From: a virus
Taxonomy: Duplodnaviria > Heunggongvirae > Uroviricota > Caudoviricetes
Virus record (IMG/VR): IMGVR_UViG_2788499997_000004
Direction: 5' to 3' (one strand)
Length of the DNA: 64,000 nucleotides
Position numbers and translations under genes: made by a program. The stretch's first letter is position 1; the number at the start of each line of letters is the position of its first letter. This document shows positions 21,123 to 57,248 of this stretch, one piece after another. Under the pieces are notes generated by a model. It was given only the letters and a program-made list of their open reading frames with translations, searched no databases and had not been told where the DNA came from.

Positions 21123-21129
21123 TTTATAT

Positions 21130-22299: not shown

Positions 22300-22312
22300 G
22301 GGGGTGATGTAA

Positions 22313-23544: not shown

Positions 23545-23557
23545 GTGAGGTATTAAG

Positions 23558-24169: not shown

Positions 24170-24344
24170 ATTGAATGTAACATATGAAGAATTAGTCAAT
24201 CATGTTAAAGACTCTTTAAAAATGAAGAATGTCCCTTTAACAAAAGTGAAAGATGTAAAAGCATATTATGTTCCTAACACAAAAGTTTTGTATTACACAG
24301 CCATGTATAATGGTGAAGAAATCAAAGGAGAAAAATACTTGTAG
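24138..24344 (+). CDS. hypothetical small protein
   Basis: 68 aa; overlaps the upstream gene. Confidence 0.3.
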   Translation: MKMKLEIQTNELNVTYEELVNHVKDSLKMKNVPLTKVKDVKAYYVPNTKVLYYTAMYNGEEIKGEKYL

Positions 24345-24790
24345 TTTTATACTTACAGTTTTCTCTTTATGCCAGCATTGTGATGAAACCTCCTCGTGGT
24401 TGCTGGTGGGTCGCGCTAATATCATCACAAGAAACAGACATATGGCTGAAAATCCTTTCAACGGGATAAGGCACACTTGCTTCATGGTGGGTGGAATTCC
24501 CATTATAGAAACTCGATTGAGATATAACATAAAGTGGTTCCAAGATGAACAATGCCGTTTGTAAATTGGCTGTGCGGACAAGGCTTTCCTATCCGGGTAA
24601 CAAGGAAAGGGAAATCCTTCTGGTGATGCAAATGTCGAGGCACAGGCTCCATGGTAGAAAAATCCAGAGAAGAAAAACATATGGTGATATATTCTGTAGT
24701 TGATGCCATGGTTGGAGGTCACAGAGTCCTTCTTTTATGCAATGAAAGCAAACGAGGAGCAGCTTGTTGAGGTATGTACGTCTGTTTTAT

Positions 24791-24865
24791 ATCGGGATAG
24801 CATAATGGTAATGCGCATGGCTCTGAACCATGTCAGTGGAGGTTCGAATCCTTCTCCCGATGCCA
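24791..24865 (+). tRNA. tRNA-Gln (CUG)
   Basis: D arm GCATaatggtaATGC as in the atypical pair, but a canonical loop: arm CATGG-CTCTGAA-CCATG. CCA encoded. Confidence 0.55.
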
Positions 24866-25014
24866 AAAAAATTTCAAAATTAGCAATTCATGATAAAATG
24901 ATAGTGGTAATCCTAATATCAGGAGCCACTATAATAGAAGATGGTAGCAGGGAACTATCATCTTCACTATACTATGACATTATTGATGATAGAAAACCAG
25001 TATCATCTTCAAAT

Positions 25015-25089
25015 ATCTCCATAGTTTAGTTGGTAGAACGTCGGTCTCCAAAACCGAAAGCAGATGTTCGAGTCGTCTTGGAGGTGCCA
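25015..25089 (+). tRNA. tRNA-Trp (CCA)
   Basis: Anticodon arm TCGGT-CTCCAAA-ACCGA; acceptor ATCTCCA/TGGAGGT; CCA encoded. Confidence 0.6.
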
Positions 25090-25090
25090 T

Positions 25091-25164
25091 GGTTTCTTGG
25101 CAGATTGGTTATGCGCAGGACTGCAACTCCTGTCAAGCTGGTTCGATTCCAGCAGAAATCTCCA
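25091..25164 (+). tRNA. tRNA-Cys (GCA)
   Basis: Anticodon arm CAGGA-CTGCAAC-TCCTG; CCA encoded. Confidence 0.6.
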
Positions 25165-27834: not shown

Positions 27835-29298
27835 ATGTTAAATACTATTTTATCGCCAGGAATTATTATAGGAGCCATCGTTATTATCATTATTGTTTTG
27901 ATTGTGTTGACTGGTTATGTCAAGGCATCACCAGATACGGCGTATATTATATCTGGATTGAGAAAAGAACCAAAAGTTTTGATTGGTAAAGCAGGAATTA
28001 AAATACCTTTCCTAGAAAAGAAAGATGAATTGAATTTACAATTAATTCCTATTGATGTACAAACTTCTAACGCTGTACCAACAGCCGATTATATCAATAT
28101 TAATGTCGATGCTACAGTGAATGTAAAAATCAGTGACAAAACAGAATTATTGAATTTAGCTGCACAAAACTTTTTAAATAAATCGACAGAATATATTGCA
28201 AGAGTAGCACGAGAAGTCCTTGAGGGAAACGTTCGTGAAATTGTCGGCCGAATGAATTTGGAAGAAATGGTTTCTGATAGACAAAAATTTGCTGAATTGG
28301 TTAAGGAAAATGCAGAACCAGATTTGGCAAAAATGGGACTAGATATCGTTTCTTTTAATGTTCAGAATTTCATGGATGACCAACAAGTTATTGAAAACCT
28401 TGGTGTTGATAATATTGTAAAAATTCAAAAGAATGCAGCCATTTCTAGAGCAGTGAGCGAACGAGACATTGCAGAAGCCCAATCAAAAGCTTCACAAGAA
28501 GCCAATGATGCTAGAATTGAAGCGGAAACAAAAATTGCAGAAAGAAATAATGAATTAGCCATTAAACAGGCAGAATTAAAGAAGGTTTCTGATGCAAAGA
28601 AAGCAGAAGCAGATGCTGCTTATAAGATTCAAGAAGAACAATCTCGTAAGTCTATTGAAATTGCCACTGCAGATGCCAACATTATGCGCCAAGAAAAGGA
28701 AATTGAATTAAGAAGAAAAGATGTAGAAGTCACTGAACAAGAATTAGAAGCCAAAATCAAAAAACAGGCAGAAGCTGAAAAATTTGCTGCTCAACAAAAA
28801 GCTGATGCTGAATTGTATAAGCGTCAAAAAGAAGCTGAAGCAAGATTCTTTGAGACTCAAAAAGAAGCCGAAGCTCAAAAGGCTAAAGCAGAAGCTATCA
28901 AATATCAAATGGAACAGGAAGCTGCTGGTATTGCAGCCAAAGGTGAGGCTGAAGCCAAAGCCATTGAAGCAAAAGGTATTGCTGAAGCTCAAGCTCTTGA
29001 TAGAAAAGCAGAAGCTATGAAAAAATATGGAGAAGCTGCCATTGCTGAAATGTATTTCAATGCTTGGCCAAAAGCTGTTGAAGCAGCTGCAAAACCTCTT
29101 GAAAAGGTTGGTAATATTACTATGTATGGTGAAGGAAACAGTGCAAAGCTTATTGAGGACGTTATGAAAAGTACAACTCAAGTCAATTCAGGTTTAGAAG
29201 GAAGTATCGGCATGGGATTAAATCCAATGTTATCTAGTTTGCTTGGAATCAAAGCAATGTCAACTTTATCTGATAATCAGACTAATGAAGGAGAGTAA
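27835..29298 (+). CDS. flotillin / SPFH (band-7) family membrane protein
   Basis: N-terminal TM segment, an SPFH-like region, and a long Ala/Glu/Lys coiled coil with EA repeats (AEAQKAKAEAIKYQ...), as in YuaG/FloT. Confidence 0.6.
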   Translation: MLNTILSPGIIIGAIVIIIIVLIVLTGYVKASPDTAYIISGLRKEPKVLIGKAGIKIPFLEKKDELNLQLIPIDVQTSNAVPTADYININVDATVNVKISDKTELLNLAAQNFLNKSTEYIARVAREVLEGNVREIVGRMNLEEMVSDRQKFAELVKENAEPDLAKMGLDIVSFNVQNFMDDQQVIENLGVDNIVKIQKNAAISRAVSERDIAEAQSKASQEANDARIEAETKIAERNNELAIKQAELKKVSDAKKAEADAAYKIQEEQSRKSIEIATADANIMRQEKEIELRRKDVEVTEQELEAKIKKQAEAEKFAAQQKADAELYKRQKEAEARFFETQKEAEAQKAKAEAIKYQMEQEAAGIAAKGEAEAKAIEAKGIAEAQALDRKAEAMKKYGEAAIAEMYFNAWPKAVEAAAKPLEKVGNITMYGEGNSAKLIEDVMKSTTQVNSGLEGSIGMGLNPMLSSLLGIKAMSTLSDNQTNEGE

Positions 29299-41765: not shown

Positions 41766-43583
41766 ATGGCAAAAACATTAAAAAAACCAAAGTATGATGC
41801 ATTAACATTTGCATATTCAAAAAAAGAAGCAGGGAAAATGATTCCTAATACAACTTTTACAGCAGGAGGAGAAGATGAAAGATTCTATAGTATTAAAAAC
41901 AAGACAATCTTGCCATCTACTGGAAAAGTAGCATCTATATTATCTGATAAGATTGCAAAAGCAATTTTAGAATCTCAGTTAACAAATGATGAAACGATGA
42001 TAGGATGGGGTAAAAATGGAACTGAGCAATTTATTTATGGAGAATTGCCTGGTGGTTCTGCAAGTGATATAGAAAAATTCATTATTAACTTAGATGAAAA
42101 GAAAATCTATGCAACGAATATCTATTCACATCTTTTATATAAAGTTATCCTAGCATATGACTTATTGCAATTTGTCTTAGCTGGTGAAAAAGCAACAGAT
42201 GAACAAAGAGAGGCTTATGAGATTTTAGCAGGTATTAACTATTTACCTACTGAACCTTTTGATGAAACATCTATTTTAGTAGATTCGGCTGAAAAAGAAA
42301 GTTTTGTCACTTTATGTGATAGTATTTTACAAACAGCATCAATGTTTAATGGTTATGAGTTTGATACTGAAATACCTAATAAAGATAAGGACTTTGATAT
42401 CTATGCTAATAAGATTAAATATAATCTTTTGCCATTAGTTGCTATGCATAATAAGGTTGATGATATGTCTATTGATACTGGAGAAGAAGATGAAGATGGA
42501 AATCCTATCTATATTCCGGAAATCAAACCTCTCAAAGTCAAAAGAAAGAAAAAAGGAGCGAAATCTAAAGCAAACTCATCTATTCCGTATAAAGATAGAG
42601 ATTATACGTTAATGACTGATGAAGAAGCTGAAGATTTACCTGAAGAATTAAAGATTCAAAGAGATGCATGTATTGAACTTTATGAAAGAAATAAAGAGTT
42701 TATGGATGATAATGATGAGCTTTGGGAATGTATCTTAAGCTTCTATCATGGAAACATCTGGAAAATGGGATTCTTTGGACCATCTGCTTCTGGGAAAACA
42801 ACGTTTGTCAGAATGATGGCAGGAGCATTAAAATTACCTTTCGCACTGGTAACAGGTAATAGAGATACAGAAACAGCACAGTTGTTTGGACATATGACAA
42901 TCAAAGATGGAGATATGGTCTTCGTTGATGGCCCATTGACTCAAATTGCGAGATACGGTGGTATCTTCTTATTTGATGAAAGAAATATGGTCAACGCTGG
43001 TGTCGTGTCAGCGACAAACAACTTGCTTGATGATACTCGTATGTGTACAATTCCTCAAACTGGAGAAACTATCAGAGCTCATAAAAACTTCAGATATTGT
43101 GAAGCTTTCAATATTGGATATGAAGGGACAAAAGAAGACAACTTGTCACATATTTCACGTATTGATGAATTCCATAAATTGGCACATACAGATGAAACAG
43201 AAGCTAAAATCGTCGTTGCGAATTCTGGAATTGAATTAGGAGTAGCCAAAACGATGATTCAAGTCAAAAACAATATCACAAAAGAAATCATAGAAGACGG
43301 GGATGAAACTACTCAAAGAGTAGATTTACGTTCTTGTATTTCATGGGCTAAAAAGACAATGGATTTGGAAGGTAATGCATTAAGAGCAGCACTTTCTACA
43401 ATCTTAACACCTCTATCAAAAGAAGTTGATACAGTTTTAAGCAGTAATAATATCAAGAACTTCTCTGCTACAGGGGACCCTGTCGTAGATTATGCTTCTA
43501 ATGAGATTAGAAAATATTTCGATGAAAGTGTTAAAAAGAAAGTCATCAAGAAAGAATATGAATTTGAAAAATATGAACTTTAA
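41766..43583 (+). CDS. MoxR/CobS-like AAA+ ATPase (AAA_5 type)
   Basis: Walker A FFGPSASGKTT and Walker B IFLFDERN, in the C-terminal half of a 605-aa protein. Confidence 0.6.
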   Translation: MAKTLKKPKYDALTFAYSKKEAGKMIPNTTFTAGGEDERFYSIKNKTILPSTGKVASILSDKIAKAILESQLTNDETMIGWGKNGTEQFIYGELPGGSASDIEKFIINLDEKKIYATNIYSHLLYKVILAYDLLQFVLAGEKATDEQREAYEILAGINYLPTEPFDETSILVDSAEKESFVTLCDSILQTASMFNGYEFDTEIPNKDKDFDIYANKIKYNLLPLVAMHNKVDDMSIDTGEEDEDGNPIYIPEIKPLKVKRKKKGAKSKANSSIPYKDRDYTLMTDEEAEDLPEELKIQRDACIELYERNKEFMDDNDELWECILSFYHGNIWKMGFFGPSASGKTTFVRMMAGALKLPFALVTGNRDTETAQLFGHMTIKDGDMVFVDGPLTQIARYGGIFLFDERNMVNAGVVSATNNLLDDTRMCTIPQTGETIRAHKNFRYCEAFNIGYEGTKEDNLSHISRIDEFHKLAHTDETEAKIVVANSGIELGVAKTMIQVKNNITKEIIEDGDETTQRVDLRSCISWAKKTMDLEGNALRAALSTILTPLSKEVDTVLSSNNIKNFSATGDPVVDYASNEIRKYFDESVKKKVIKKEYEFEKYEL

Positions 43584-43593
43584 GAATTGAAAA

Positions 43594-43620
43594 GGCTGGT
43601 ATTTCAGCCTTTTTATTTTA
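43594..43620 (+). terminator. terminator hairpin
   Basis: AGGCTGgtatttCAGCCT followed by TTTTATTTT. Confidence 0.5.
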
Positions 43621-43635
43621 AGGAAGGAGTAAATT

Positions 43636-45903
43636 ATGAAAAGAAAAACAGGAAAATTAATGAAAAAGAAGGTTAAGAAGATTTTAACTGGCATTGAGTT
43701 GCTTACAAGTAAAGGTTATAGAGCCAGCTATAAAAGTATGGCTGAAACTTATTGTAAACAGCCTCTTCAATTTAAAATGCTTTTAAATGCAGGAAGTTTT
43801 ACAAGTGTTAATGATAAAGGTCAGACATTGATGAATATTGACTTGAATATGTTTAGAGATGATAAGTTTTCAACATCTCACTATCATCTGTTTGCTAAAG
43901 GCGTGATTTTACATGAATCCGGTCATGTTTTATATAGTGATTTTGATGTGATTAGAAAAAACGCAGATAATGTGAATCAGTTAAGAAATCAAATCAAGGC
44001 AATCGGAGAGGCATACTATCAAGAATCTGACCCTATTCTCAAACAGGACTGTGAAACAAAATTGTATGATGCCATTTTAGAATTTACTAAGGCAAGTAAT
44101 CTACCAGATGTCCTAAACTCTTTTGAAGATGCTGCAGTAGAGAGAGTCATGTCAGAAATGGGTAAAGATGAAAATGGAAGCATTGCTTTTACAAGAAATT
44201 ATATTGTAGAAAAAGATACACAACATAAATTAGATGGCATCAATAACGATGCGATTCCATTGGATTCAGACAACTGGAATCAAGCCACTTTGGATGGAAT
44301 TATCACTGAAGCCAGATTAATGGCTACAGCAGGATATAGAATGGCTATTGATATGACTATCATATCGCATACTTTTGAGCCTGCAGAAATCAATCAGATT
44401 AAGGATATCTGTCAATATGTGAGATTTATGTCCAATACAACAGAAGATAGAAATATTTCCAGTGAAGTCTTCTTGGATATGTGTCAACCAATTATCGAGA
44501 AGATAGCGCAAGACTTAACAAACGCTTATATCAGAGATATTGATTATGCTGAAGACCAGTTGAACAACATGCAACAAAACGCAAATGCATCTACTCAATC
44601 AACAGGTGGTCCAGGAAGCCAGCCAACTCAAGCAGGAGGAAATGGATTGCCTGGGCAAAAAGGAGGAAGTCAACCTCAGCCTACATCAAATAAGAATAGT
44701 TTACCTCTGCCTGATAGCCTAAAGAAACAATTACAAAACAAAGCCAATCAAACAGGGCAGCTATTAAGTGTTGGTGGACAGGGTTCAAACCAAGGAGACG
44801 CTTCACATGATGGACAGGGAGCAGATGGCGCAGGCACAGGAAATGAAAATAATAATGCTACATCAGGAGGAGGTTCAGGTGATGGGCCAAATGGAACATC
44901 AATCCCTAATGCGACAAAAACAAGTGAAGAGTTAAGTGATGAAAGTGTTACTGATATGACAGAGGCATTAAATAATGCAAAAAAGACTTTTCAGCGAAAT
45001 GAAGATATGGTTCAAGATTCATTAATTAAAAGCGACCATAATATCAGAGCAGCCGAAGGACGCTGTCATAAAGGTATTGGAATCAGCATAACAGACATCA
45101 ATGATGTTTTGGATTTATCAGATTCTCGTGAAGGAAAAGAAGCCCAAAAAACAATTCAAAAAGATAATTTGAACATCTATGTTAATGAATTATCTAAAAA
45201 AATTAAAAAAGTTCTTATGAGAAAAGGCATGGATGATACATCAAGAGGACGTTATGAAGGAGATATTGATTTCTCAAATCTTCATAGAATCAAAACAGAC
45301 TGCCAGTTATTTAAAAAGGATATCGAAGGTAAGACAAACAAAATAAGATTTGCTATTCTTGTAGACGAATCTGGAAGCATGTATGGTACAGAACTGTATA
45401 ATGCCATATTAGGATGTTGGATGATTGCAAAAGCTGCACAAAAACTCAAAATCCCATTTGCTGTTTATGGCCATGATGAAGATGATGAGTTTGAACTCAG
45501 AAAGTACATCTCATATGAAAAATGTAAGAAAAATACAGCATTGAACTCATTATTTAAAATGAGTTCTAGAGGATGCAACAGAGATGGCCTGGCAATTTTC
45601 CATGTTTGTAGAGAATTAATTAAACATGCACAAGATGACGAGGATTTGTATTTTATCATCTTGAGTGATGGACAACCAAATGGACACAATTATGGTGGAC
45701 AACCGGCAATCGATGACATGAGAGAAGTTATCAATACTTTCAAAAAGCATTACAACGTCCATTCAATTGGAATTGGGATTGGAGATTTTAATTTTGAAAA
45801 TATTGGCGTCATCTATGATAATCATGTCTGCGTAAAAGACGTGAAAGAATTGCCTAATGAGATGTTCAAGATTTTTAAACAGATTTTAAAAGTAGAAAGA
45901 TAG
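43636..45903 (+). CDS. CobT-like protein with C-terminal von Willebrand factor A domain
   Basis: MIDAS motif FAILVDESGSM (DxSxS), DGLAI and ILSDGQP; central G/Q/S/N-rich low-complexity linker. Confidence 0.6.
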   Translation: MKRKTGKLMKKKVKKILTGIELLTSKGYRASYKSMAETYCKQPLQFKMLLNAGSFTSVNDKGQTLMNIDLNMFRDDKFSTSHYHLFAKGVILHESGHVLYSDFDVIRKNADNVNQLRNQIKAIGEAYYQESDPILKQDCETKLYDAILEFTKASNLPDVLNSFEDAAVERVMSEMGKDENGSIAFTRNYIVEKDTQHKLDGINNDAIPLDSDNWNQATLDGIITEARLMATAGYRMAIDMTIISHTFEPAEINQIKDICQYVRFMSNTTEDRNISSEVFLDMCQPIIEKIAQDLTNAYIRDIDYAEDQLNNMQQNANASTQSTGGPGSQPTQAGGNGLPGQKGGSQPQPTSNKNSLPLPDSLKKQLQNKANQTGQLLSVGGQGSNQGDASHDGQGADGAGTGNENNNATSGGGSGDGPNGTSIPNATKTSEELSDESVTDMTEALNNAKKTFQRNEDMVQDSLIKSDHNIRAAEGRCHKGIGISITDINDVLDLSDSREGKEAQKTIQKDNLNIYVNELSKKIKKVLMRKGMDDTSRGRYEGDIDFSNLHRIKTDCQLFKKDIEGKTNKIRFAILVDESGSMYGTELYNAILGCWMIAKAAQKLKIPFAVYGHDEDDEFELRKYISYEKCKKNTALNSLFKMSSRGCNRDGLAIFHVCRELIKHAQDDEDLYFIILSDGQPNGHNYGGQPAIDDMREVINTFKKHYNVHSIGIGIGDFNFENIGVIYDNHVCVKDVKELPNEMFKIFKQILKVER

Positions 45904-46570: not shown

Positions 46571-46727
46571 TTGCATGAAAAAGGAGGGTGGGAAGATAAC
46601 GAATATGAATATTTTTAACTCTAGCAAAGCGTTCCACCCACTTTTTCATTTCTATATTGATATAATTTAGGAATAGGAATATAATTATATTAGATATAGA
46701 TAACAAACGATAGAAAGGAGAATAATT

Positions 46728-46847
46728 ATGAATGGAAAACGTGTATTAAAATCTGTAAAGAAAAGAGTTTCAATTGCTGAGAAAAATTCCAAAATTTCTA
46801 GAAATATGCAGTATACAAATGGAGCATGGAATGATTCTCATAGATAG
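46728..46847 (+). CDS. candidate RiPP precursor peptide (39 aa), not in the ORF track
   Basis: aaaggag lies 8 nt before the ATG. Peptide: MNGKRVLKSVKKRVSIAEKNSKISRNMQYTNGAWNDSHR. Sits immediately upstream of an arginase-fold / rSAM-SPASM gene pair. Confidence 0.3.
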   Translation: MNGKRVLKSVKKRVSIAEKNSKISRNMQYTNGAWNDSHR

Positions 46848-46896
46848 AATTTAAAGAGCTGTAACGATTATTACGTTACAGCCTCTTTTCACATAT

Positions 46897-47619
46897 ATGA
46901 ATTATATTTTTTTATTACCATTTGCTTTTGGTGGAAATCCTGCATGTGAATCAGGCCCTAGAGCTGCATATAATATAATAAAGGATAACTTCTCTACTCA
47001 GAAATACTCTGTTTTTATTATTGAACAAAAAATCAATGAAAGTCCGGAAAATTATTTATTAAAAGTAGAAGATATTATTGATAAAGAGGTTATAGATAAT
47101 TCAAAATGTTGTGTAATTGGTGGAAATCATCTTTCTATATTACCTGTTTATAAACATATAATTAAATCTAACTTGTTATCTAATTTTTTAATATTAGATG
47201 CTCATCGAGATTTTTATCCTCAAAACGATTTATCCCATTCTACTTTTTTAAAATACATATCTCATGATAATAATTTTTTGTTGGTGGGTTGTAGAGATAA
47301 AAATAGACATCATTCATTTATTAGAAATACAAAAGTGATTTTTAAAGAAGATTATAAAGAGTTATTACAAATAGATATGAATAAAATAAATATGATAGAT
47401 ATAGATTTAGATGTAATAGATGAAAGTGAATTTGCCAGTTATTCAGATTATATCCCAAATGGGCTTTCGCTAAATCAAATTCGTGAAATAATTTCATTAT
47501 CTAAAAACAGGGAGGCACAGTTTTTATCAATTTCAGAATATAATCCTATTTTTGATTATGGACAAAAGGATTTACTAAAAATAATTGATTTAATTAATCT
47601 ATTTTTTGATGATTATTAA
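46897..47619 (+). CDS. ureohydrolase (arginase/agmatinase)-fold protein, possibly a peptide-arginase-like enzyme
   Basis: IGGNHLS (compare the GGDHS motif), LDAHRDF (DAHxD) and DIDLDVIDESE (SxDxDxxDP-like). Confidence 0.45.
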   Translation: MNYIFLLPFAFGGNPACESGPRAAYNIIKDNFSTQKYSVFIIEQKINESPENYLLKVEDIIDKEVIDNSKCCVIGGNHLSILPVYKHIIKSNLLSNFLILDAHRDFYPQNDLSHSTFLKYISHDNNFLLVGCRDKNRHHSFIRNTKVIFKEDYKELLQIDMNKINMIDIDLDVIDESEFASYSDYIPNGLSLNQIREIISLSKNREAQFLSISEYNPIFDYGQKDLLKIIDLINLFFDDY

Positions 47620-47638
47620 TAATAGGAGGTAAAATGAT

Positions 47639-48709
47639 ATGTTAATGCAGAGTTTTATCATACCCATAATTAAAGTAACTGATTCATGTAACTTTAATTG
47701 TGAATTTTGTTATTATTCACAAAAAAAATTACATTCAGAATTAATGACACTCGAATTATGTAAGAAAATAATAAAAGAAACATTTGAATATAATGCTAAG
47801 ATGGGAAATAAAAGAATGAGAATAATTTTTCATGGTGGAGAGCCTTTACTTCAACCCATAACCTTTTATAAAGAGTTATATAATTTTGAAAATGAGTTAA
47901 AACATAACTATCAAATGGATATTTTACATTCAATTCAAACGAATGGTTACAATATTAATAATCAATGGATTGAATTATTTCAAATAATGAATATGGATGT
48001 TGGAATTAGTATTGATGGCCCTGATTTTCTTAATTTCCATTATAATGAATTAGGTCAGAAAAAGTGCACTGATAAAGTTTTAGAGAATATACAATTATTA
48101 AATCAGAATAACATCTCTTATGGAATAATTAGTGTAATTACAAATTCTCATCTTAATTATGCAAAAGAAATGTATGATTTCTGTATTAAAAATGATATAC
48201 ATAATCTAAGTCTTAATTATTGTTATAATGATGACTCAGATGATAGTGTTGATACGAAAGAATTAGTTTTTTTCCTAAAAGAACTTTTTGATTTATATTT
48301 TAATGGTGATTATGAGTTAAATATTAGAGAATTTAATGAGTCTATTGCAAAAATACTAGGGTATTGTAGTGATACATGTGCAACATGTAGTAGGGAAAAT
48401 TGTGGGCAGTATATGTCTTTTGATTCCTATGGAAATGTATTCTTTTGTGATAATGCATATGATAAAAATAATGCAATTGGAAATTTATATAATTCTTCAT
48501 TATATGATATTATTGACTCCTCAAGATATTTAACAGAAATAATTAAATCAAGACGAAATTATGAAGAAAACTGTAAAAATTGCTCACTATCTTTTGTGTG
48601 TGGAAGTGGATGTTATAGATATGATAACAACCTTGGAGTTAATTATTTTTGTCCAACCATGAAAGCGATTAACAATTATATTATAAATAAAATAAATAAT
48701 AATGATTAA
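47639..48709 (+). CDS. radical SAM enzyme with C-terminal SPASM/twitch-type Cys cluster
   Basis: DSCNFNCEFC (CxxxCxxC) near the N-terminus; C-terminal CSDTCATCSRENCGQ...FCDNAY...CKNCSLSFVCGSGC. Confidence 0.65.
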   Translation: MLMQSFIIPIIKVTDSCNFNCEFCYYSQKKLHSELMTLELCKKIIKETFEYNAKMGNKRMRIIFHGGEPLLQPITFYKELYNFENELKHNYQMDILHSIQTNGYNINNQWIELFQIMNMDVGISIDGPDFLNFHYNELGQKKCTDKVLENIQLLNQNNISYGIISVITNSHLNYAKEMYDFCIKNDIHNLSLNYCYNDDSDDSVDTKELVFFLKELFDLYFNGDYELNIREFNESIAKILGYCSDTCATCSRENCGQYMSFDSYGNVFFCDNAYDKNNAIGNLYNSSLYDIIDSSRYLTEIIKSRRNYEENCKNCSLSFVCGSGCYRYDNNLGVNYFCPTMKAINNYIINKINNND

Positions 48710-48711
48710 AA

Positions 48712-48740
48712 AAAGTTGAAAAAAAATCAACTTTTTTTAA
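48712..48740. terminator. bidirectional terminator between convergent genes
   Basis: AAGTTGAaaaaaaaTCAACTT flanked by A-runs and T-runs. Confidence 0.5.
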
Positions 48741-49207
48741 TGAGTAATTACTAACAGTATCATTAGAAATATAATATATCCAATCAACATCATCAAAGCC
48801 AGAGGAATCATAATGCTCTGTTTTTCTTTTAAGCTTCCACCATGATTCTTTCTTTTTTGCATAAATTTATATAAGCAATAGAACCATGAAACAACAAATG
48901 TGATAAGAAAGAGTAGGAGGCTGTTTTCCATACCTAATAGAGAACCTACTGCTAACATCAGTTTGGCATCTCCGCCTCCTATTTGGTGGAGTTTAAAAAG
49001 GATGAAACATATAATAAATAATGGAATCAACCATATCTGATTTTTCAATCCTTCCAACCATCCATATAAAAACATGCTATTGATAATACCTATAGGAATA
49101 AATGGTAATGTCATATAATTGGGTATGATTCGTTTCCTTGCATCGCTGTAGGCTGTTAATACCAGTAAGATAAAAGTCAATATAATATCTAAATAAAGCA
49201 TATACAC
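48737..49207 (-). CDS. A24-family (prepilin peptidase / CpaA-like) membrane aspartyl protease
   Basis: AYSDARKRIIPN and IGGGDAKLM motifs in a polytopic 156-aa membrane protein. Confidence 0.5.
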   Translation of the reverse strand: MYMLYLDIILTFILLVLTAYSDARKRIIPNYMTLPFIPIGIINSMFLYGWLEGLKNQIWLIPLFIICFILFKLHQIGGGDAKLMLAVGSLLGMENSLLLFLITFVVSWFYCLYKFMQKRKNHGGSLKEKQSIMIPLALMMLIGYIIFLMILLVITH

Positions 49208-49226
49208 CTCCTAAAAAGAGACTGTC

Positions 49227-50867
49227 TTAGGCAGCCTCTTTTACATTTATATATAATTTTTCGATATCCTGTGCTAATAAGGTTTCTTTTTCTAGAAGAC
49301 TTTTAGCAATGGTATCTAAAAGTGATTGATTTTCCTTGATAATATGAGTTGCTTCTTCATGGCATTGTTTTAAAAGGGTATTCACTTCCTCATCAAGTTT
49401 CTTTTGAGTTTCTTGAGAGGCTTGGTTATCAACTTTCATCAATCCCATTTTCCCCATCCCAAAAGAGCCAACATATCTTCTGGCAAGATTCGTAGCTTTT
49501 TCAATGTCATTGGATGCACCAGCCGTTATATCATCGAAGAAAAGTTCCTCTGCGACACGACCTGATAATAACCCAACGATTTCATCATGAATAGAGCCTT
49601 TTGTAGGGAAAAATGTTTCTTCTTTTGGCATCATGAGGTTGTATCCTCCAGCTTCTCCACGAGGAATGATTGTGACTTTTTCTACCTTCTTTGCATTTTC
49701 CAGGACAAGACCAGCAACGGCATGACCTGCTTCATGATAAGCGACAATTTTTCTTTCTTTATCAGTATACTGATGTGTTGTTTTTGATGGTCCCATCAAG
49801 ACTCTATCCACAGCTTCATCAATAAGGGAATCATTGATAGCATTTTGATGGAATCTGACAGCTAAAAGTGCCGCTTCATTCATAAGTGCAGCTAATTCAG
49901 CATTAGAAAATCCCTGTGTTTTCTTAGCAATACTTTCAAAATCCAAATTATCAATCTTTTTATTCTTTGCGTGCAACTTAAGGACATCAATGCGTTCTTC
50001 ATATGTTGGTAAACCGACATAAATTTGTCTATCGAATCGTCCAGGACGAAGCAATGCAGAATCTAACATATCCTTACGATTTGTGGCAGCAATGACAATG
50101 TAGTTATTATCTTTGGTAAATCCATCCATCTCAACCAATAACTGATTAAGCGTATGTTCACTTTCTTTGTTATAACCGTTACTGCTTCTTTTTCCTCCCA
50201 TTGCATCAATCTCATCAATGAAGATAATGCATGGTTCCTTGCTTTCTCTTGCAGAGTCAAATAGCTTTCTCACTCTTTCAGCTCCAACTCCAACAAACTT
50301 TTCAACGAATTCAGAACCTGAAGTATATAAAAACTTCACACCTGCTTCACCAGCTACAGCTCTGGCAAGTAATGTTTTCCCTGTGCCTGGAGGGCCTTCA
50401 AATAGGATTCCATGAGGAATTGTTGCTCCCATACTATGATATTTTGAGGGCTGCTTTAAAAAGTCGATGATTTCGTATAATTCATCCTTTACTTCTTTAA
50501 ATCCGGCGATGTCGTTTAAAGTGATATCGCTATGAGAAGGAGTAAATTCATTGCCAACATTTTTTTCAGTCATCTTTTCATTAATCATATCTTTAATTTT
50601 ATTACTGTCAGCAGAAGAATTGACTGCTGTTTTCTTAGTTTCCTGTAAATAAGCAGTTGCAATCAGTTTGGCTTTATCCTTATATTCATTTCTTTCAATC
50701 TCAATAGTCTTCATTTTATAATAATATAAGCCTATGATGACAAAACTGGCAATGCCAATTAATGTCATCATAATAAAACCAATCATAGAAATAGATGTAA
50801 AAAAATATATAAATAACAGTGCTAGAATATAAATGACACCGTAAATTTTAATGTATGTGTTTTTCAT
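49227..50867 (-). CDS. ftsH: FtsH-like ATP-dependent zinc metalloprotease
   Basis: N-terminal TM helices, Walker [28 protein letters not shown], zinc site HEAGHAV. The ATG at 50867 follows GAGG; the track ORF extends to 50897. Confidence 0.75.
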
Positions 50868-50996
50868 ATCATAACCTCTTTTCCTTGCTAATAGCATTTG
50901 TCTTTAGCTTTTTCACAAGTCTATTTTACCATAAATCCTAAAAAATATCAAGAAAAATTTAGGGAAATAACAAAAAAGAGAATTTTTCATTCTCTT

Positions 50997-51503
50997 TTAC
51001 TTTTTATATAGCTTATGAAATAGAGAGGATATGAAATCATTTTCGTATACGACTTTGGCATAAACGTCCTCTACATTAATTTCACCAATAATTCTAGAAT
51101 CAATAGAATTATTTCTATTATCACCCATGACAAATACGCAGTCTTGAGAAACAGTCACTTCTTCCATGTCAGAATACATCTGTTCACTGATATAGGATTC
51201 TTCTTGTTTTTCTCCATTGATATAAAGATATCCATCCATAATAGCGACTGTATCGCCAGCAACAGCAATGACTCTTTTAATGATATATTCTGCTCCTATG
51301 TTGTATTGGGAACAGTCAACAATAACGACATCCTGACGGGCATAGTTTCTATCTATTTTAACGCCTAGAACGACATCCCTGTCTTCGTAAGTGGGATGCA
51401 TTGATTCTCCTGATACTATGGCAGTAGCAAATGTCACTTGTACACCAAAAAAAACAGCTAAACATAAAAGAACAAATCCAATTTTTTCAATTATCTTTTT
51501 CAT
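50997..51503 (-). CDS. lepB: signal peptidase I
   Basis: GESMHPT (Ser box), IKRVIAVAGD (Lys box) and GDNRNNSIDSR. Confidence 0.75.
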   Translation of the reverse strand: MKKIIEKIGFVLLCLAVFFGVQVTFATAIVSGESMHPTYEDRDVVLGVKIDRNYARQDVVIVDCSQYNIGAEYIIKRVIAVAGDTVAIMDGYLYINGEKQEESYISEQMYSDMEEVTVSQDCVFVMGDNRNNSIDSRIIGEINVEDVYAKVVYENDFISSLFHKLYKK

Positions 51504-51506
51504 GTT

Positions 51507-51989
51507 TTATCCCTCCAGTCGTGTTGCTGAGAATTCTTCGTTGGTGTTGAGATTGACTATGCTTAAGCTATTGATACCATTCATCTGAAAAGCAAATTCA
51601 CTGCTTTGCTTAGATAATGAAGAAGAATAGTTTTCACCATTCAAAATAAAGGTATCATAATTCATTTTATAATAATAGATATGTTTTTCTAATAGACTTG
51701 CTTTATTGGATTCTGGTGCTTGAATGGCTTCTAATGCATCTTCTTGTGTTAAAACAGTAGGGGAAGTGGCATGATAATAACTCTCTTTTGTGTTGTCCTG
51801 ATACCAGTAAAATTCATCTTCAGATATCACCATGACACTTCCATTGTTCAATATCCATTCTCCTTCAATCCCTGGTACATGTTGGGTACAGCCTATTAGC
51901 AAAAGGCTTAGTAAAAAGAAGAGACTAATCCTTTTGAAGTACCCAATGTTCAATTTCTTTAGCGAGTTCATTATTTTTCTCATATACAC
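51507..51989 (-). CDS. lipoprotein
   Basis: Signal peptide with lipobox LLIGC. Confidence 0.45.
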   Translation of the reverse strand: MYMRKIMNSLKKLNIGYFKRISLFFLLSLLLIGCTQHVPGIEGEWILNNGSVMVISEDEFYWYQDNTKESYYHATSPTVLTQEDALEAIQAPESNKASLLEKHIYYYKMNYDTFILNGENYSSSLSKQSSEFAFQMNGINSLSIVNLNTNEEFSATRLEG

Positions 51990-52344
51990 GATAAAATTTA
52001 TAAGATTTTCCTTCTGCAGTGATTTTGAAGTATCTTGGAGCTATGTGTATTTTATCAATGGAATGAAACGTATATTCTTTATCATTAACATGGAATGTAA
52101 TAGCATCATCTATCACAACACTATCATTATGCCTTTTCATAATGTCTGAAATAGGGTGAGTGTAGATAGTATGTCCTATGATTATCAAGATGACTGCTAG
52201 GAAGATGAGAATCAAACCTTGCCAAATGGCCATATACCTTAAGACTGTGATACTGAATAAAAGTAATGTAAATAATGTGGCGAATGATATTTTTTTTAAT
52301 CCCATAGCCTGTTTTTCATCATATAAATATGTCACTCCCTTCAC
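51925..52344 (-). CDS. small membrane protein
   Basis: Two TM segments. Confidence 0.35.
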   Translation of the reverse strand: MKGVTYLYDEKQAMGLKKISFATLFTLLLFSITVLRYMAIWQGLILIFLAVILIIIGHTIYTHPISDIMKRHNDSVVIDDAITFHVNDKEYTFHSIDKIHIAPRYFKITAEGKSYKFYRVYEKNNELAKEIEHWVLQKD

Positions 52345-52346
52345 CT

Positions 52347-54425
52347 CTAGAATTTGAATTCTACTTTATGTGTACCTTTATTGATATGTAAAACGGCATC
52401 AAATTTCTTTCCATTACGTGAAGTAAAACCTTTTAACTTACTTGTCTGTCCTTTATTTAATAGTGTTCTGACAGTTGTTTTGGAAATCTTTTTACCGGCG
52501 ATTTCTTTCCATATTGAGAAATTGCACCCATCTTTGTACCCTGGGCAGTAATAAGACTTGCTGTTTTCTTTCATTTCTCTACCACAGAATGGACAAATTC
52601 CTATACTATCTAATGACTTTTGGCTACTTTGACTTTTTATTGGTGCTACAGAGTCGATTGTTTTCCCACTGTTGTCTTTTGCAGAATTAACCAGTTCATC
52701 AACCTGTTCATTGACACTTCCCATAAACTCCTTAAAACTCATCTTCCCTTTTTCAACCATAGATAACTTTGTTTCCAGCTGTGCAGTCATCATAGGAGAT
52801 GTAAGAGGAGAATTTGGAAGGATGTCGACAAGTGCCATCGTTTTATCGGTAGGATAGATGACTTTTCCTTTCTTCACAAGAAAACCAGTCTTATAAAGTT
52901 TTTTGAGGATGTCAGAGCGAGTCGCCTCTGTTCCAATACCTTTCACTTCTTTCAAAATGCTTTTTGCTTTCTTATCTTCAACAAATCTTCCTGCATTTTC
53001 CATGGCTTTTAATAAACTTGCTTCAGTGTATCTTGCAGGTGGTTTTGTTGTTTTCTTTTCTACCTTATGATTGACATAATGATAATCCTTACCATCAGTG
53101 ATATGAGGTAGAATATTATCCTTTGGAATGCCATTAATCTTCATCCAATTAGCCTCAACAATGATTTTTCCTGTGCATGAGAACTTGACTCCATTTGCAT
53201 CTGTCGATACTTTTGTTTCCTCAACCTTAGCAGGTGGATAGAATCCCTGTAAAAATCTTTTCACAACCATCAAATATACAGCTTTTTCTTCTGATGATAA
53301 TTGACCAATAATCTTTGATGGTTCACCATCATATGTTGGCGTGATGGCTTCATGGGGCATTTCTCCAGCTGAGAAGTTGATAAGATGCTTTTGGAATGTA
53401 CGATGATTCTCTTTAATATCATCAATAATTTCATCAACTAATCCAATTCCATCCAAACTATCAACAATCTTCATGACTTCTTTGCTAGAAGATACAGAAA
53501 TCTGTTGAATATCTGTTCTTGGGTATGTTGTTAAACCATAGTCCTGATAGAGTTTTTGAAGAATGTTGGTCGTTTTTTCAGCCGATAATCCTAAAGCATT
53601 AATGGCTTCCATATTAACATCATTGGTTTTGTAAAGCATTGGACAGCGCACTTCCTTCAAATTGACTTCCTTGTGCATTGTATATGGTAAGGAATGAAGT
53701 TGAGCCTCTAAAGATGATGCTTCTTTATGAGATAAACGACCAGACTGTAATGACAAATGTTCACTGTCATCACTTGTTGTTGTCAATGTTATAGTCCAGT
53801 AATCTTCTGGCTTGAAGTTTTGAATTTCTTTTTCAAGTTTAGCCACAAGAAAACGAGTAGGGGACTGAACACGACCTTCATTAATGACGTTCTTATATCC
53901 ACCAAAGGCCTTTGTATTGACTCTTGTTCCGTTCATCCCAATGAAGTAGTCTGCCTGCATACGACATAATCCAGCTGTTTCAAGGTTTTTATAATAAGTA
54001 TTATCTTTTCTATCTTTGAAGGCCTTAGATAAACCAGCTTTTGTCCATTCATGAATCCAGACTCTTGTAACAGGAGCAGACATTTTGAGATTCTTAGCAA
54101 TTAATGCCCAAATGAGTTGTCCTTCACGGTCTGGGTCAGTACAGACAACAATTTCATCAATATCGTTTCTTTTAACAAGCTCTTTCAAGCAGTTGAAATA
54201 GGCTTTTGAAGAAGAAATAGCTTTGAGTGGTAAGATATCAGGCAATTGAAGTTTCTCAATTTTCCATTGCTTGTTGTTTGCATCAATTTCTTCTGGCATC
54301 TTGGCTTGAAAAAGATGTCCACATGCTGAGGCAAAAATATATTGAGTACCCTCATAAAAGTAGGTGTATTTTGCATATTTATGACTTTTTGCTGATGGTT
54401 CTAATGCATTGATGAATTTCTTCAT
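52347..54425 (-). CDS. type IA DNA topoisomerase (topoisomerase III-like)
   Basis: TOPRIM-like N-terminus, active-site region GLTTYPRTD, and C-terminal zinc ribbons CPFCG...CPGYKDGC. Confidence 0.7.
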   Translation of the reverse strand: MKKFINALEPSAKSHKYAKYTYFYEGTQYIFASACGHLFQAKMPEEIDANNKQWKIEKLQLPDILPLKAISSSKAYFNCLKELVKRNDIDEIVVCTDPDREGQLIWALIAKNLKMSAPVTRVWIHEWTKAGLSKAFKDRKDNTYYKNLETAGLCRMQADYFIGMNGTRVNTKAFGGYKNVINEGRVQSPTRFLVAKLEKEIQNFKPEDYWTITLTTTSDDSEHLSLQSGRLSHKEASSLEAQLHSLPYTMHKEVNLKEVRCPMLYKTNDVNMEAINALGLSAEKTTNILQKLYQDYGLTTYPRTDIQQISVSSSKEVMKIVDSLDGIGLVDEIIDDIKENHRTFQKHLINFSAGEMPHEAITPTYDGEPSKIIGQLSSEEKAVYLMVVKRFLQGFYPPAKVEETKVSTDANGVKFSCTGKIIVEANWMKINGIPKDNILPHITDGKDYHYVNHKVEKKTTKPPARYTEASLLKAMENAGRFVEDKKAKSILKEVKGIGTEATRSDILKKLYKTGFLVKKGKVIYPTDKTMALVDILPNSPLTSPMMTAQLETKLSMVEKGKMSFKEFMGSVNEQVDELVNSAKDNSGKTIDSVAPIKSQSSQKSLDSIGICPFCGREMKENSKSYYCPGYKDGCNFSIWKEIAGKKISKTTVRTLLNKGQTSKLKGFTSRNGKKFDAVLHINKGTHKVEFKF

Positions 54426-54633: not shown

Positions 54634-56082
54634 TTATGCCAGAAATGGAATCTTATTCTGGATAAGATATTCAGTTGTCTTCATATAGTCAACATAAAAG
54701 TCTTCCTTATGAACGGAAAGATTCTTTGAATCTACACTGATGACTTCAGATAATCCATTCTTTTGAGCAATGTCTGTTTTAATTTGAGAAAGAGTATCCT
54801 TATAAATATAGATTCTCAGCTTTCTATCCAATGCTTTTTTCATGGCATTGACTATAAGAGTGGTTGAAATTTCACCATTGTCTTCTTTCTTTTGAATACG
54901 TCCACTGACAATGACAATTTCCTCTTCATTGATGAGATGTTCAATACCCTCGTAGGTCTTAGGGAAAACAACACCTTCAATCGCATCGAATTCATCACCT
55001 AATGTCAAGAAACACATATCATCGCCTTTCTTTGTCGTAATCTTTTGAATATCATCTATCTGACAGAGAATCTGCACATCTGTTCCATCATCCATATCCA
55101 TTAAATCATGAATAGTATCTTGATAGACTTTGAGCACAGGTCGAATCTGTTCTAATGGATGACCATTGAGACAGATGTGGATAGCCTTTCTTTCTAGATT
55201 CATTTTTTCCTGTAATCCATATTCAATCCCTTCATAACTGTCTTCTCCGATGATATCATCTAATATCGTCCTTCCATAAATGGATGAGATTTTGTGATGA
55301 TATTTGACAGTTTCTAAAATGGATGGAACAATCTCATTCATTTCCTTACGGACTCCCCATTTATCAAAGACACCACCATTGATAAGGTTGCTTAACTGGT
55401 TAGTACGAATTGTTGGGAACTTATCTATGAATTCGTAAAGAGATGGGGAATGTTTAAGGGATGTGATGAGTTTTGCCACATCTTCCCCAATTCCTTCAAT
55501 CCCATTGAGTCCATAACGAATGGCATAACGCCCCTCATGCTTCTCGATAGAGAATTGAGAGAGGGAGTCTTGAAGGGTTGGTGGAAGGATTTCTATACCA
55601 AGATTTCTGATTTCTCCAAGACATGGAATTAACTTATCCTTATCATCGGCATTGATAGTACAGTTGGCCGCCATAAAACATTCAGGATAGTGTGCCTTTA
55701 AATAAGCTGTCTGATATGAAATCATAGCATAGGCTGCACTATGTGATTTGTTGAATCCGTATTCTGCGAACTTTTTAATCATAGCGTACACTTCTTTTGC
55801 TGTTTTTTCAGGAACACCATTGTCCTGACAGCGTTTGGAAAACTCTTCTTCCATCATATCAATATATTGCTTATCTTTCTTTCCTATTCCACGTCTTAAT
55901 ATGTCAGCTTCTCCTAAAGAGAAACCTGCCATATCCTGTACCACCTGCATAATCTGCTCCTGGTAGACGAGGATACCATATGTTTCCTTTGAAGAGTTTT
56001 CGTATAATGGATGAGGATAATGGACTTTTGAAGGGTTTTTCATACCTTCAAGATAGTTATCAATAAACTGCATTGGACCCGG
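54634..56082 (-). CDS. dnaE: DNA polymerase III alpha (DnaE) exon 3
   Basis: Begins PGPMQFIDNY (compare RPGPLQSGMVDNFIDR); contains YQEQIMQ, GKKDKQ and FNKSHSAAYA. Confidence 0.6.
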   Translation of the reverse strand, partial: PGPMQFIDNYLEGMKNPSKVHYPHPLYENSSKETYGILVYQEQIMQVVQDMAGFSLGEADILRRGIGKKDKQYIDMMEEEFSKRCQDNGVPEKTAKEVYAMIKKFAEYGFNKSHSAAYAMISYQTAYLKAHYPECFMAANCTINADDKDKLIPCLGEIRNLGIEILPPTLQDSLSQFSIEKHEGRYAIRYGLNGIEGIGEDVAKLITSLKHSPSLYEFIDKFPTIRTNQLSNLINGGVFDKWGVRKEMNEIVPSILETVKYHHKISSIYGRTILDDIIGEDSYEGIEYGLQEKMNLERKAIHICLNGHPLEQIRPVLKVYQDTIHDLMDMDDGTDVQILCQIDDIQKITTKKGDDMCFLTLGDEFDAIEGVVFPKTYEGIEHLINEEEIVIVSGRIQKKEDNGEISTTLIVNAMKKALDRKLRIYIYKDTLSQIKTDIAQKNGLSEVISVDSKNLSVHKEDFYVDYMKTTEYLIQNKIPFLA

Positions 56083-57248
56083 CAACTTCAACGTGAGCTT
56101 TCACCCACCAGTAATATATACTGTGAAGCTGGACTATACAATCATCCACGTGGGATGCCTCTAGGTAGTCTCTGGGAGGCTTACAAATAATTAAACATTG
56201 TTTTTTGGAATTCTTCTGATTTGGATATTTCTACCCATGAACATTCTTGAATTGTGCCTCATATGTGCACGTATTGCACCTGTAACTGATGATGGTTTCT
56301 TGTCACATATGTTATGCTCTATACACCAATTTGCACAATCTAAAGTTTTGTTAAATATGTATGTTTTACCATCCATTGTTAATTGGAGTAAAGAATTATA
56401 AGCTAATTCTCTTTGAGCAAGATTTTTATTTCTATATTCTTCATCTTTCCAGTTATTAGCTACAGATTTAATTGCTTTATTTTTGTTTTCTTCATTAGAC
56501 CAATAAGCTCTTTTATTTAACGATTTAATTTTTCTTATATTATCTTGTGCTTGTTGACTGGCTAATTGTTTATAGTAGGTATCATCCTTTGCAATTTTCT
56601 TTTTCATAGCTATTGAATAAACTTCAGCGAGATTTGTGTTTGCATATAATTCTTTTCTCGTTTGGGATATTTTTTGTTTACTCTCATCTCTAAGGTAATA
56701 ATGACTATCACCACCTGAAGTAGCATTATACCCTTTATTTCTATCTACTGTCTGATAATAATTTATCCAATACTTTTCTCTAATGTTTAATTCATCTTTC
56801 GTACATTCTTCAAGAACACTAAAATCGAAATTTTCTATGCCATATTTTTTTAAAGCATTATATAAATGATTATTCCTAATATTTGTATGAGACATTTTTA
56901 TATGGTCTTTCCATCTTTTTTCAATATTAATACTTTGTCCAATATACTTTTTGCTATTTATTCTATTTTTTATCATATATATTCCAATAGTCAATATATC
57001 ACTCCGGCATTAGATGCCATATTTTAAAATGTTATGTTTATTTGTAAGTTTCTCTGCTGATTATCCATTGTTTATAACACTTAGGACCTCAATTGAGGCT
57101 TTTATTTCACCATATGTCATCTCATTTTCTTGTTTCTATCTTTCGATACCCATCTTACTTATATAAGAGGGGAAATGAGCTTTAGGAGTTTCCAGCATAT
57201 AAAGAGGTTTTTCGCACTATGTTGCCATAATACGTCGCCTGTATGTTC
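56083..57248 (-). mobile_element. group I intron in dnaE carrying a GIY-YIG homing endonuclease ORF
   Basis: The upstream exon ends in U and the intron ends in G. A free-standing endonuclease ORF with its own RBS sits inside. Flanking ORF read-throughs hit stop codons. Confidence 0.5.
56191..56994 (-). CDS. GIY-YIG homing endonuclease
   Basis: IGIYMIKN...KKYIGQS (GIY...YIG) near the N-terminus; TTG start after GGAGTG. Confidence 0.65.
   Translation of the reverse strand: MTIGIYMIKNRINSKKYIGQSINIEKRWKDHIKMSHTNIRNNHLYNALKKYGIENFDFSVLEECTKDELNIREKYWINYYQTVDRNKGYNATSGGDSHYYLRDESKQKISQTRKELYANTNLAEVYSIAMKKKIAKDDTYYKQLASQQAQDNIRKIKSLNKRAYWSNEENKNKAIKSVANNWKDEEYRNKNLAQRELAYNSLLQLTMDGKTYIFNKTLDCANWCIEHNICDKKPSSVTGAIRAHMRHNSRMFMGRNIQIRRIPKNNV

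Follow-up and report, generated by a model that had tools for sequence, protein, structure and literature searches.

Introduction

In the enteropeptin pathway (kgr, the 'KGR' subfamily) of Enterococcus cecorum and Streptococcus thermophilus, an Arg near the C-terminal core of a peptide synthesized ribosomally and modified after translation (RiPP) is converted to ornithine (PMC12703449, PMC13361665), and the arginase concerned, the PF00491 protein KgrD, acts on this Arg only after the radical S-adenosylmethionine (radical SAM) step (PMC12703449). Peptide arginases of the OspR type, exemplified by that of landornamide, belong to PF12640 (PMC12703449). Triceptide maturases are SPASM-type radical SAM enzymes that lack an N-terminal RiPP recognition element (RRE) and act on aromatic-X-X motifs, often repeated within the core; one of them, ChlB, is a multiple three-residue cyclophane synthase (PMC11499958, PMC12912966). 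Here we analyze a locus in which a short peptide gene, a gene for an arginase-fold (ureohydrolase) protein and a gene for a radical SAM/SPASM enzyme stand side by side in a 64,000-nucleotide stretch of viral DNA (IMG/VR record IMGVR_UViG_2788499997_000004, Caudoviricetes; the whole stretch is called the window below). With good confidence, we take these three genes to be a minimal three-gene RiPP cassette, the representative of an undescribed family of RiPPs whose enzymes are of known types. Our confidence in the specific chemistry of the radical SAM enzyme is much lower.

The enteropeptin pathway is the nearest functional analogue of this cassette. In both, a small RiPP precursor is encoded together with a radical SAM enzyme and a PF00491 manganese-dependent arginase, and one specific Arg is involved. 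The two differ in several respects. The residue before the Arg is an invariant His in the family described here, whereas enteropeptin has a Cys beside its Arg (thiomorpholine sactionine ring); there is no KGR motif, and type A, type B and most type C cores (defined below) contain no Cys. Nor is an Fe-S methyltransferase equivalent to KgrB, the enzyme of N-methylornithine formation, conserved beside the trio, and among the genes called next to the cassette in the sampled loci there is no Rgg/SHP regulator. The radical SAM enzyme of the window also appears to descend from anaerobic sulfatase-maturating enzymes (anSMEs), unlike that of enteropeptin. KgrC and KgrD were not among the homologues found, and enteropeptin is set apart here by its published description.

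With the OspR-type enzymes (landornamide, the selidamides and the biphenomycin-like PbsE), the window protein shares a ureohydrolase fold, a binuclear Mn site and the predicted conversion of peptidyl-Arg to ornithine and urea (PMC12703449, PMC10028609). A preliminary description of the locus had drawn the landornamide analogy. Its prediction of an Arg-to-ornithine step is retained here, whereas the family it implied was the wrong one: like KgrD, the window protein matches PF00491 only, and not PF12640. OspR itself (8BRP) is absent from the family-profile matches in the PDB and from the 50 best fold matches listed, and it is promiscuous for many Arg residues, in contrast to the single invariant Arg available in the window family.

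The triceptide systems (ChlB, XyeB/XncB, OscB/GrrM, YhhB and HtkB, with the related DynA/DarE) resemble the cassette in employing a SPASM radical SAM enzyme without an RRE. A further resemblance lies in the precursor, which has an invariant W-x-D and extra in-phase aromatic-x-D/E/N units (Y-T-N, W-H-E, W-P-D), a weak criterion when taken alone. Unlike the triceptide enzymes, the radical SAM protein of the window falls under the cutoff of all curated cyclophane-maturase models and is closer to anSME by profile. The searchable literature yielded no triceptide pathway with an arginase-fold partner, and no description of the family, whether sought by its motif or as an arginase combined with triceptide, cyclophane or radical SAM.

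Results

The precursor gene (MNGKRVLKSVKKRVSIAEKNSKISRNMQYTNGAWNDSHR; 46728-46847, plus strand; 39 codons and a stop) encodes a leader with an N-terminal MNG.RVL motif and the core NMQYTNGAWNDSHR. The core ends in the hexapeptide W-N-D-S-H-R (46827..46844, plus strand), the local form of the W-x-D-S/T-H-R signature of the family, where both modifications are presumed to occur. On the same strand follow the genes for a 240-residue ureohydrolase/arginase-fold enzyme of PF00491 (46897-47619), a predicted peptidyl-arginine to ornithine hydrolase, and for a 356-residue radical SAM/SPASM maturase of apparent anSME ancestry (47639-48709; PF04055, PF13186). A gene for a 156-residue A24-type aspartic peptidase (48737-49207, minus strand; PF01478, 69 bits) runs convergently toward them, and the region is flanked by the genes for FtsH (49227-50897, minus strand) and signal peptidase I (50997-51503, minus strand). 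The preliminary description had placed the same four open reading frames (ORFs) at exactly these positions, and Pfam searches bear out the flanking FtsH and signal peptidase I that it reported. We set the boundaries of the module at 46657-48709, with the A24 peptidase outside.

The signals around the precursor gene fit a gene that is expressed in its own right. Its ATG is preceded at 7 nt by a Shine-Dalgarno sequence read from the sequence as AAAGGAG (46714-46720, plus strand), as strong as had been reported earlier. Further upstream, the top-scoring promoter-like site of the region, TTGATA-17-TATAAT (46657..46685, plus strand), lies 43 nt 5' of the ATG and matches the sigma-70-type consensus at 11 of 12 positions; it is a putative promoter. 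The enzyme genes are set off from the precursor gene by a hairpin followed by a T-run (46858..46889, plus strand), a putative terminator or attenuator with a 9-bp stem, 5 GC pairs and a CTCTTTT tail. Its predicted stability is -16.3 kcal/mol (z -5.8), equaled by none of 200 shuffled sequences. In 10 of 11 loci a hairpin lies 3' of the precursor gene; these hairpins are unrelated in sequence, range from -14 to -31 kcal/mol and mostly carry a T-run. This layout would be the one common in RiPP operons for producing precursor mRNA in excess.

The RiPP interpretation draws on the conservation of the trio. Peptide, arginase-fold and radical SAM genes occur together in about 10 independent types of locus, where their order takes four or five forms; the arrangement is far beyond chance. 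The order peptide-arginase-radical SAM is found in the window and in locus L004, radical SAM-peptide-arginase in L001, L003 and L019, radical SAM-arginase-peptide in L016, and arginase-radical SAM-peptide in L014 and L021; in L007 the arginase and radical SAM genes are followed by the peptide gene on the opposite strand. Arginase-fold homologues are rare (27 clusters among 5.8 billion proteins), and on each long contig examined the arginase-fold gene adjoins a radical SAM/SPASM gene and an ORF of 32-62 codons. A six-frame scan of the fetched loci located the peptide wherever both enzymes are present, with a single exception (L009) that is considered in the Discussion. When the search was made from the radical SAM side, about 65 clusters were recovered above 36% identity before a sharp fall to about 30%, and all three of the clade members sampled, reaching down to 36-37% identity, adjoin an arginase gene and a peptide. 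Identity between the enzymes drops to 29-30% (arginase-fold) and 37% (radical SAM) while the peptide core is invariant. Precursor, arginase-fold protein and radical SAM/SPASM enzyme are inherited together regardless of gene order or host element. A cis-regulatory leader ORF is ruled out by this permutation of the gene order, which speaks for a functional link. The core of the preliminary description, namely that the short ORF, the arginase-fold protein and the radical SAM/SPASM protein are a RiPP-type module with a modified-peptide product, is thus upheld by the conservation of the trio. The short ORF, whose lack of conservation had been named as a possible objection, is conserved in related loci; the gene order, which it had also been proposed to check, varies as given above.

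To delineate the precursor family, we used an alignment of precursor variants as the query. The resulting profile recovered 27 clusters from the same 5.8 billion proteins with E values down to 1e-15, and an exhaustive hidden Markov model search of 1.84 billion representatives added five more genuine variants, all with a terminal WxDSHR. The large repetitive proteins P0151, P0152 and P0157 that the exhaustive search also returned were rejected as low-complexity matches. The approximately 30 variants share an N-terminal MNG..V[LI] and a C-terminal W-x-D-S/T-H-R followed by zero or one residue, the sole exception being a degenerate copy on a 657-bp contig. N, W, D, H and R do not vary, and G, V and S hardly do; the only substitution of the Ser in W-x-D-S-H-R is Thr, in one variant. 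The peptide of the window (P0122) is seen in exactly this form on at least 24 contigs. Three types of core can be told apart: type A, that of the window, reads NM[QT]Y[TS]NG[AS]W[NG]DSHR; type B, WHESW[PG]D[GDSA]W[RT]DSHR; and type C, WGYD[SC]WQDSHR. Aromatic-x-(D/E/N)-(S/G) units recur in phase within these cores, as YTNG and WNDS in type A and as WHES, WPDG and WRDS in type B. At the invariant core residues, synonymous codons differ by locus (TCN and AGT for Ser; AGA, CGC and CGT for Arg), which indicates that selection acts on the peptide sequence. The Arg/Lys-rich character that had been singled out as a relevant trait of the window peptide proved incidental, in that type B and type C precursors have acidic leaders and, as their sole invariant Arg, the C-terminal one. 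The precursor motif did not come up in the literature that could be searched, and NCBIfam has no model for the peptide or the family.

At E values up to 0.01, PF00491 was the only Pfam family matched by the arginase-fold protein (E 2e-13; 50.9 bits, cutoff 22). The GGNH, DAHRD and DIDLDVID motifs listed in the preliminary description are present, and the family motifs read GGNHLS, DAHRD, DIDLDVID and SxSEY. Alignment to Pfam and PDB ureohydrolases, aided by the textbook arginase numbering, assigns the six Mn-ligand positions to H78, D101, H103, D105, D168 and D170. All six are invariant in 26 sequences and sit in GGNH (the His), DAHRD (D-x-H-x-D) and DIDLD (D-x-D). The Asn of GGNH had been suspected of altering the chemistry of the metal site; it is invariant in the family, is Glu in 3lhl and is not a ligand, that role falling to the neighboring His, and it offers no evidence of an altered metal chemistry. 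Judged by its intact metal site, the ureohydrolase is apparently an active enzyme. The single invariant Arg, at or beside the C-terminus of the precursor, is the obvious candidate for its substrate.

The AlphaFold2 model of the protein is confident (pLDDT 89.6, pTM 0.90) and resembles ureohydrolases in general, with a TM score of about 0.8. It singles out no subfamily, in that identities lie at 13-20% whether the comparison is with agmatinases, arginases, formiminoglutamase, guanidino-acid hydrolases or metformin hydrolase. The closest PDB sequence is the putative agmatinase 3lhl. Scores against the curated equivalog models were 30 bits for agmatinase (TIGR01230; cutoff 174), 22 for formiminoglutamase/HutG (TIGR01227; cutoff 229) and 18 for arginase (TIGR01229; cutoff 228). 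By these comparisons the window protein is a compact, deeply divergent ureohydrolase that lies outside the free-substrate subfamilies. At about a tenth of the cutoffs, the equivalog scores do not place it with the free-substrate agmatinases or formiminoglutamases, a grouping that had been named as one that would count against a role on peptides. The weak leads that do emerge, agmatinase at 30 bits, anSME at 187 bits and the kinship with 3lhl, could be read to mean that the cassette pairs a ureohydrolase acting on free arginine or agmatine with a sulfatase-type maturase, the small ORF then being a chance ORF or a cis-acting leader peptide. We regard this explanation as extremely improbable. All equivalog scores are far under their curated cutoffs, and no sulfatase gene lies near any member locus. 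The peptide, moreover, is kept at the protein level through synonymous codon turnover, follows the enzymes or is encoded on the other strand at a number of loci, and ends in an invariant Arg that suits ureohydrolase chemistry.

The second enzyme of the RiPP cassette matches the radical SAM family PF04055 at 58 bits (cutoff 29.5) and the SPASM family PF13186 at 33.9 bits (cutoff 21.5). Its CX3CX2C motif is at C17/C21/C24, and there is no N-terminal RRE domain. Across the clade C17, C21, C24, C247, C255, C270, C315, C321, C325 and C338 are invariant, and C312 is conserved in at least 90%; the earlier assignment as a radical SAM protein with CxxxCxxC and SPASM cysteines is therefore sound on alignment. 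Every NCBIfam score of the enzyme is below threshold: 187.5 against 349 for the anSME model TIGR03942, 162 for DynA and, among the cyclophane models, 143 against 310 for GrrM/OscB, 128 against 425 for AmcB, 120 against 445 for YhhB, 91 against 370 for FxsB and 73.5 against 450 for XyeB. In a single-sequence search of the PDB, the best match was ChlB. On these scores, the homology to cyclophane maturases is judged to be real, yet the enzyme is outside every curated family.

The cassette is carried by conjugative elements, integrase islands and chromosome-sized contigs, also sits on contigs from 137 kb to about 1 Mb, and is found repeatedly on mobile elements of gut Firmicutes. Its neighbors are mostly mobile-element genes: L004 has conjugation genes, L007 has ParAB together with a relaxase, L021 has integrases, and L009 and L011 have insertion sequence (IS) elements. 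In L016, a ToxN-type toxin gene (4331-4915, plus strand) lies directly 5' of the most widespread, type C version of the cassette, whose peptide (P0135) is recorded on 78 contigs of up to 1.08 Mb. All-against-all BLASTP of the unannotated neighbors revealed no fourth conserved gene, with nothing below E 0.02. Among known defense systems (PADLOC), there was only a generic viperin-core match, to the radical SAM enzyme. A search of IMG/VR for the family gave zero matches. Annotated phage and plasmid collections contained no near-identical DNA and no protein-level match to the arginase-fold protein, and among species-representative genomes the sole match was a distant Gemmataceae ureohydrolase.

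This distribution also bears on a larger module that the preliminary description had envisaged, in which the A24 prepilin-type peptidase would remove the leader while FtsH and signal peptidase I would export or process the peptide. Prepilin peptidases cleave after Gly, and a near-invariant Gly indeed stands just before the core in type A (NG[AS]W) and type B (DGW) precursors; the A24 gene is, in addition, convergent to the radical SAM gene at only 27 bp from its stop codon. The A24 gene, however, adjoins the cassette only in copies of the element represented by the window (the window itself, L006 and L023-28) and in none of the other approximately nine locus types. FtsH and signal peptidase I likewise accompany only the copies of this element and are absent from other loci. 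The A24 gene closes a distinct minus-strand operon that also contains the genes for FtsH, signal peptidase I, a lipoprotein and a topoisomerase. In the precursor no hydrophobic pilin-like segment follows the Gly, which is itself missing from type C cores. The extended module is thus largely refuted by its distribution, and we consider it very unlikely. With these three genes limited to one element, we draw no inference about export from them.

A number of loci depart from the standard cassette, and the copies in three of them (L009, L011 and L024) are degenerate. In L011 (1-4800), transposases of the IS66 and integrase types occupy the place where the radical SAM gene is expected, and that gene is absent. 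L024 has a truncated arginase ORF (10445-10891; 148 residues called) in an otherwise identical element. In the type B locus L013, the radical SAM gene of the cassette is followed by another radical SAM ORF of shorter length (MKVRYFNITYRCNSNCLFC...; 3895-4818, plus strand), and the arginase-fold frame (1129-2784, plus strand) remains open over about 950 bp on the upstream side of the domain; the pathway may be expanded here. Two candidates were rejected as members of the family. L015 has 20% identity and neither a radical SAM gene nor a peptide; the ureohydrolase of a Gemmataceae metagenome-assembled genome (L010, 4989-5810, plus strand) has 26% identity and no radical SAM gene or precursor nearby. 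The latter carries the matching motifs GGNHLS, DAH.D and DIDVDVLD, and may be a free-living relative of the cassette enzyme.

The element in the window may fairly be described as a putative large plasmid or phage-plasmid. The window is low in GC (25-36% outside the tRNA block), and no virion genes were found in its 64 kb. Replication, partitioning and DNA-metabolism functions include a RecD2 helicase (613-2859), a ParB-like protein (3676-4725), ParA (4679-5641), a DEDDh exonuclease (8135-8791), a RepA_N/DnaD-like initiator (16331-17953), a type IA topoisomerase (52347-54425, minus strand) and SSB (62862-63563). Also encoded are a SpoVG-domain protein (9565-10275), a protein with SPFH/Band-7 and flotillin domains (27835-29298, plus strand) and a CobS-like AAA_5 ATPase with a CobT/VWA-like protein (41766-45903). 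ARAGORN called 24 tRNA genes, covering most amino acids, in an array at 19150-25164 (plus strand). An Rfam match to a tRNA-like sequence of 135 nt (19400-19534), uncalled by ARAGORN, may be an intron-containing or otherwise unusual tRNA; tRNAs were the only matches when the window was searched with Rfam for regulatory RNAs. The minus-strand string at 48737-54425 comprises the topoisomerase, a 139-residue membrane protein, a lipoprotein-like protein of 160 residues with an LIGC lipobox (51507-51989, minus strand), signal peptidase I, a full FtsH (AAA+ and M41) and the short A24/TadV-like peptidase, for which no pilin-like substrate was identified. To carry its own set for membrane-protein processing and quality control is unusual for a mobile element.

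The gene for the alpha subunit of DNA polymerase III (54634-60611, minus strand) is broken up into three ORFs (59205-60611, PHP/NTPase; 57159-57962, NTPase/finger; 54634-56091, finger/HhH/OB), with an HNH/NUMOD endonuclease ORF (58116-58844) and a GIY-YIG ORF (56191-56994) between them. Rfam detected no group I or II intron in this region. The ORF calls across it differ among related contigs, which suggests that the insertions are polymorphic. The same element is present on many metagenomic contigs of up to 257 kb and in the NCBI assembly GCA_900624845.1 (UYXN01000004.1), while in annotated collections its relatives are only distant matches to uncultured fecal phages and CobT-bearing phage-plasmids.

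Discussion

The data suggest the following pathway. The precursor would be transcribed from its own promoter, and the hairpin after the precursor gene would keep precursor mRNA above enzyme mRNA. The radical SAM/SPASM enzyme is then predicted to recognize the leader without the help of an RRE domain and to abstract a C-beta hydrogen within the core. Most likely it joins the ring of the Trp to the C-beta of the Asp two residues on, to give a three-residue cyclophane (-2 Da), and the step may be repeated at the extra in-phase units, namely YTN in type A and WHE and WPD in type B. The ureohydrolase would hydrolyze the guanidine of the invariant Arg to yield ornithine and urea, probably after the radical SAM step, as in enteropeptin. 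The mass change of this conversion is calculated as -42.02 Da (loss of CH2N2), and the loss of 1 Da per Arg that had been proposed as the mass-spectrometric read-out should be replaced by this figure. Leader removal and export, if any, would be left to host functions because no dedicated protease or exporter is conserved. We infer both reactions and their order, and regard the conversion of Arg to ornithine as the better-supported half of the chemistry.

For the radical SAM step, we put a Trp-ring to Asp-C-beta cyclophane on the invariant W-x-D at slightly short of an even chance, judging from the core sequences and the enzyme's relatives; other cross-links involving Trp, His or Arg would take up what likelihood is left over by this reaction and by the Ser oxidation considered below. 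The in-phase aromatic-x-(D/E/N)-(S/G) repeats are typical of iterative cyclophane synthases and favor the cyclophane, and linkage of Trp to the C-beta of Asn (WVN) is established cyclophane chemistry. Several points weigh against the pathway as set out here. Type C cores match the in-phase repeat pattern less well, and in the literature that we examined no triceptide motif with Asp as the cross-linked residue at the third position is documented. The invariant Ser and His are unexplained by a model of cyclophane plus ornithine. Locus L009 (5872-7669) has both enzymes, but no precursor could be recognized within 6 kb by several search patterns; an IS110 transposase is nearby, and loss or displacement of the precursor is possible. 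No protease, exporter or transporter, immunity gene or methyltransferase is conserved among the loci, which is unusual for a secreted bioactive peptide. Finally, there is the ancestry of the enzyme: with a clade profile in place of a single sequence, the favored PDB match is the anSME of Clostridium perfringens (196 bits, E 9e-57, full-length) over the peptide cross-linker ChlB (123 bits), and the two nearest outgroups of the clade (P0095 and P0107; 29-30% identity) adjoin sulfatase genes.

This ancestry raises an alternative in which the radical SAM enzyme has kept the anSME reaction and oxidizes the Ser of W-x-D-S-H-R to a formylglycine-type aldehyde or ketone. By profile, anSME (PDB 4K36-4K39) is the closest solved structure, with the same SPASM architecture, and its Tyr24 and Cys276-Asp277 align with the invariant Y26 and C270-D271 of the clade. 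A catalytic role has reportedly been proposed for these anSME residues by Goldman et al. in 2013. The sulfatase-linked outgroups point the same way, as does a Ser that is nearly invariant and gives way only to Thr, and oxidation would account for the fixed Ser and Arg at their set spacing. The amine of the ornithine unmasked by the arginase, two residues away, could then condense with the aldehyde to a cyclic imine. What the oxidation leaves unexplained are the invariant Trp and Asp and the in-phase W-x-D/E units of type B. The enzyme, at 187.5 bits, is far from the anSME equivalog cutoff of 349, its partner is a peptide of 32-50 residues without the sulfatase motif C/S-x-P/A-x-R, and there is no sulfatase nearby. 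We know of no RiPP that bears formylglycine. On balance, we consider Ser oxidation unlikely, and its specific outcome, in which formylglycine (FGly) formation is followed by closure with the ornithine amine to a 12-membered cyclic imine FGly-His-Orn, less likely again. A variant in which both the Trp-Asp cyclophane and the Ser oxidation occur would account for the five invariant residues. To judge from these relationships, the clade appears to be a sulfatase maturase that has been taken over for work on a peptide.

By analogy with other small radical SAM RiPPs, we suggest that the product of the cassette would most likely be a narrow-spectrum growth-modulating or signaling peptide. The work defines a RiPP family in testable terms, through a precursor signature, a dedicated PF00491 ureohydrolase clade and an anSME-derived radical SAM/SPASM clade. 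To our knowledge it is the second pairing of a radical SAM enzyme with a PF00491 arginase, after enteropeptin, and it has a different core, which suggests that installation of ornithine after radical chemistry is a recurring strategy. At about 2 kb, without accessory genes and able to move among plasmids, conjugative elements and chromosomes, the cassette lends itself to easy testing by co-expression, and ornithine-containing cyclic peptides are of interest for peptide engineering. If FGly-His-Orn were the true product, this would make it the first RiPP with formylglycine and provide a ribosomal route to an aldehyde-amine macrocyclization hitherto known from non-ribosomal peptides. As a maturase that appears to have switched substrates, the radical SAM clade also bears on the origin of the cyclophane synthases and of other peptide-modifying SPASM enzymes.

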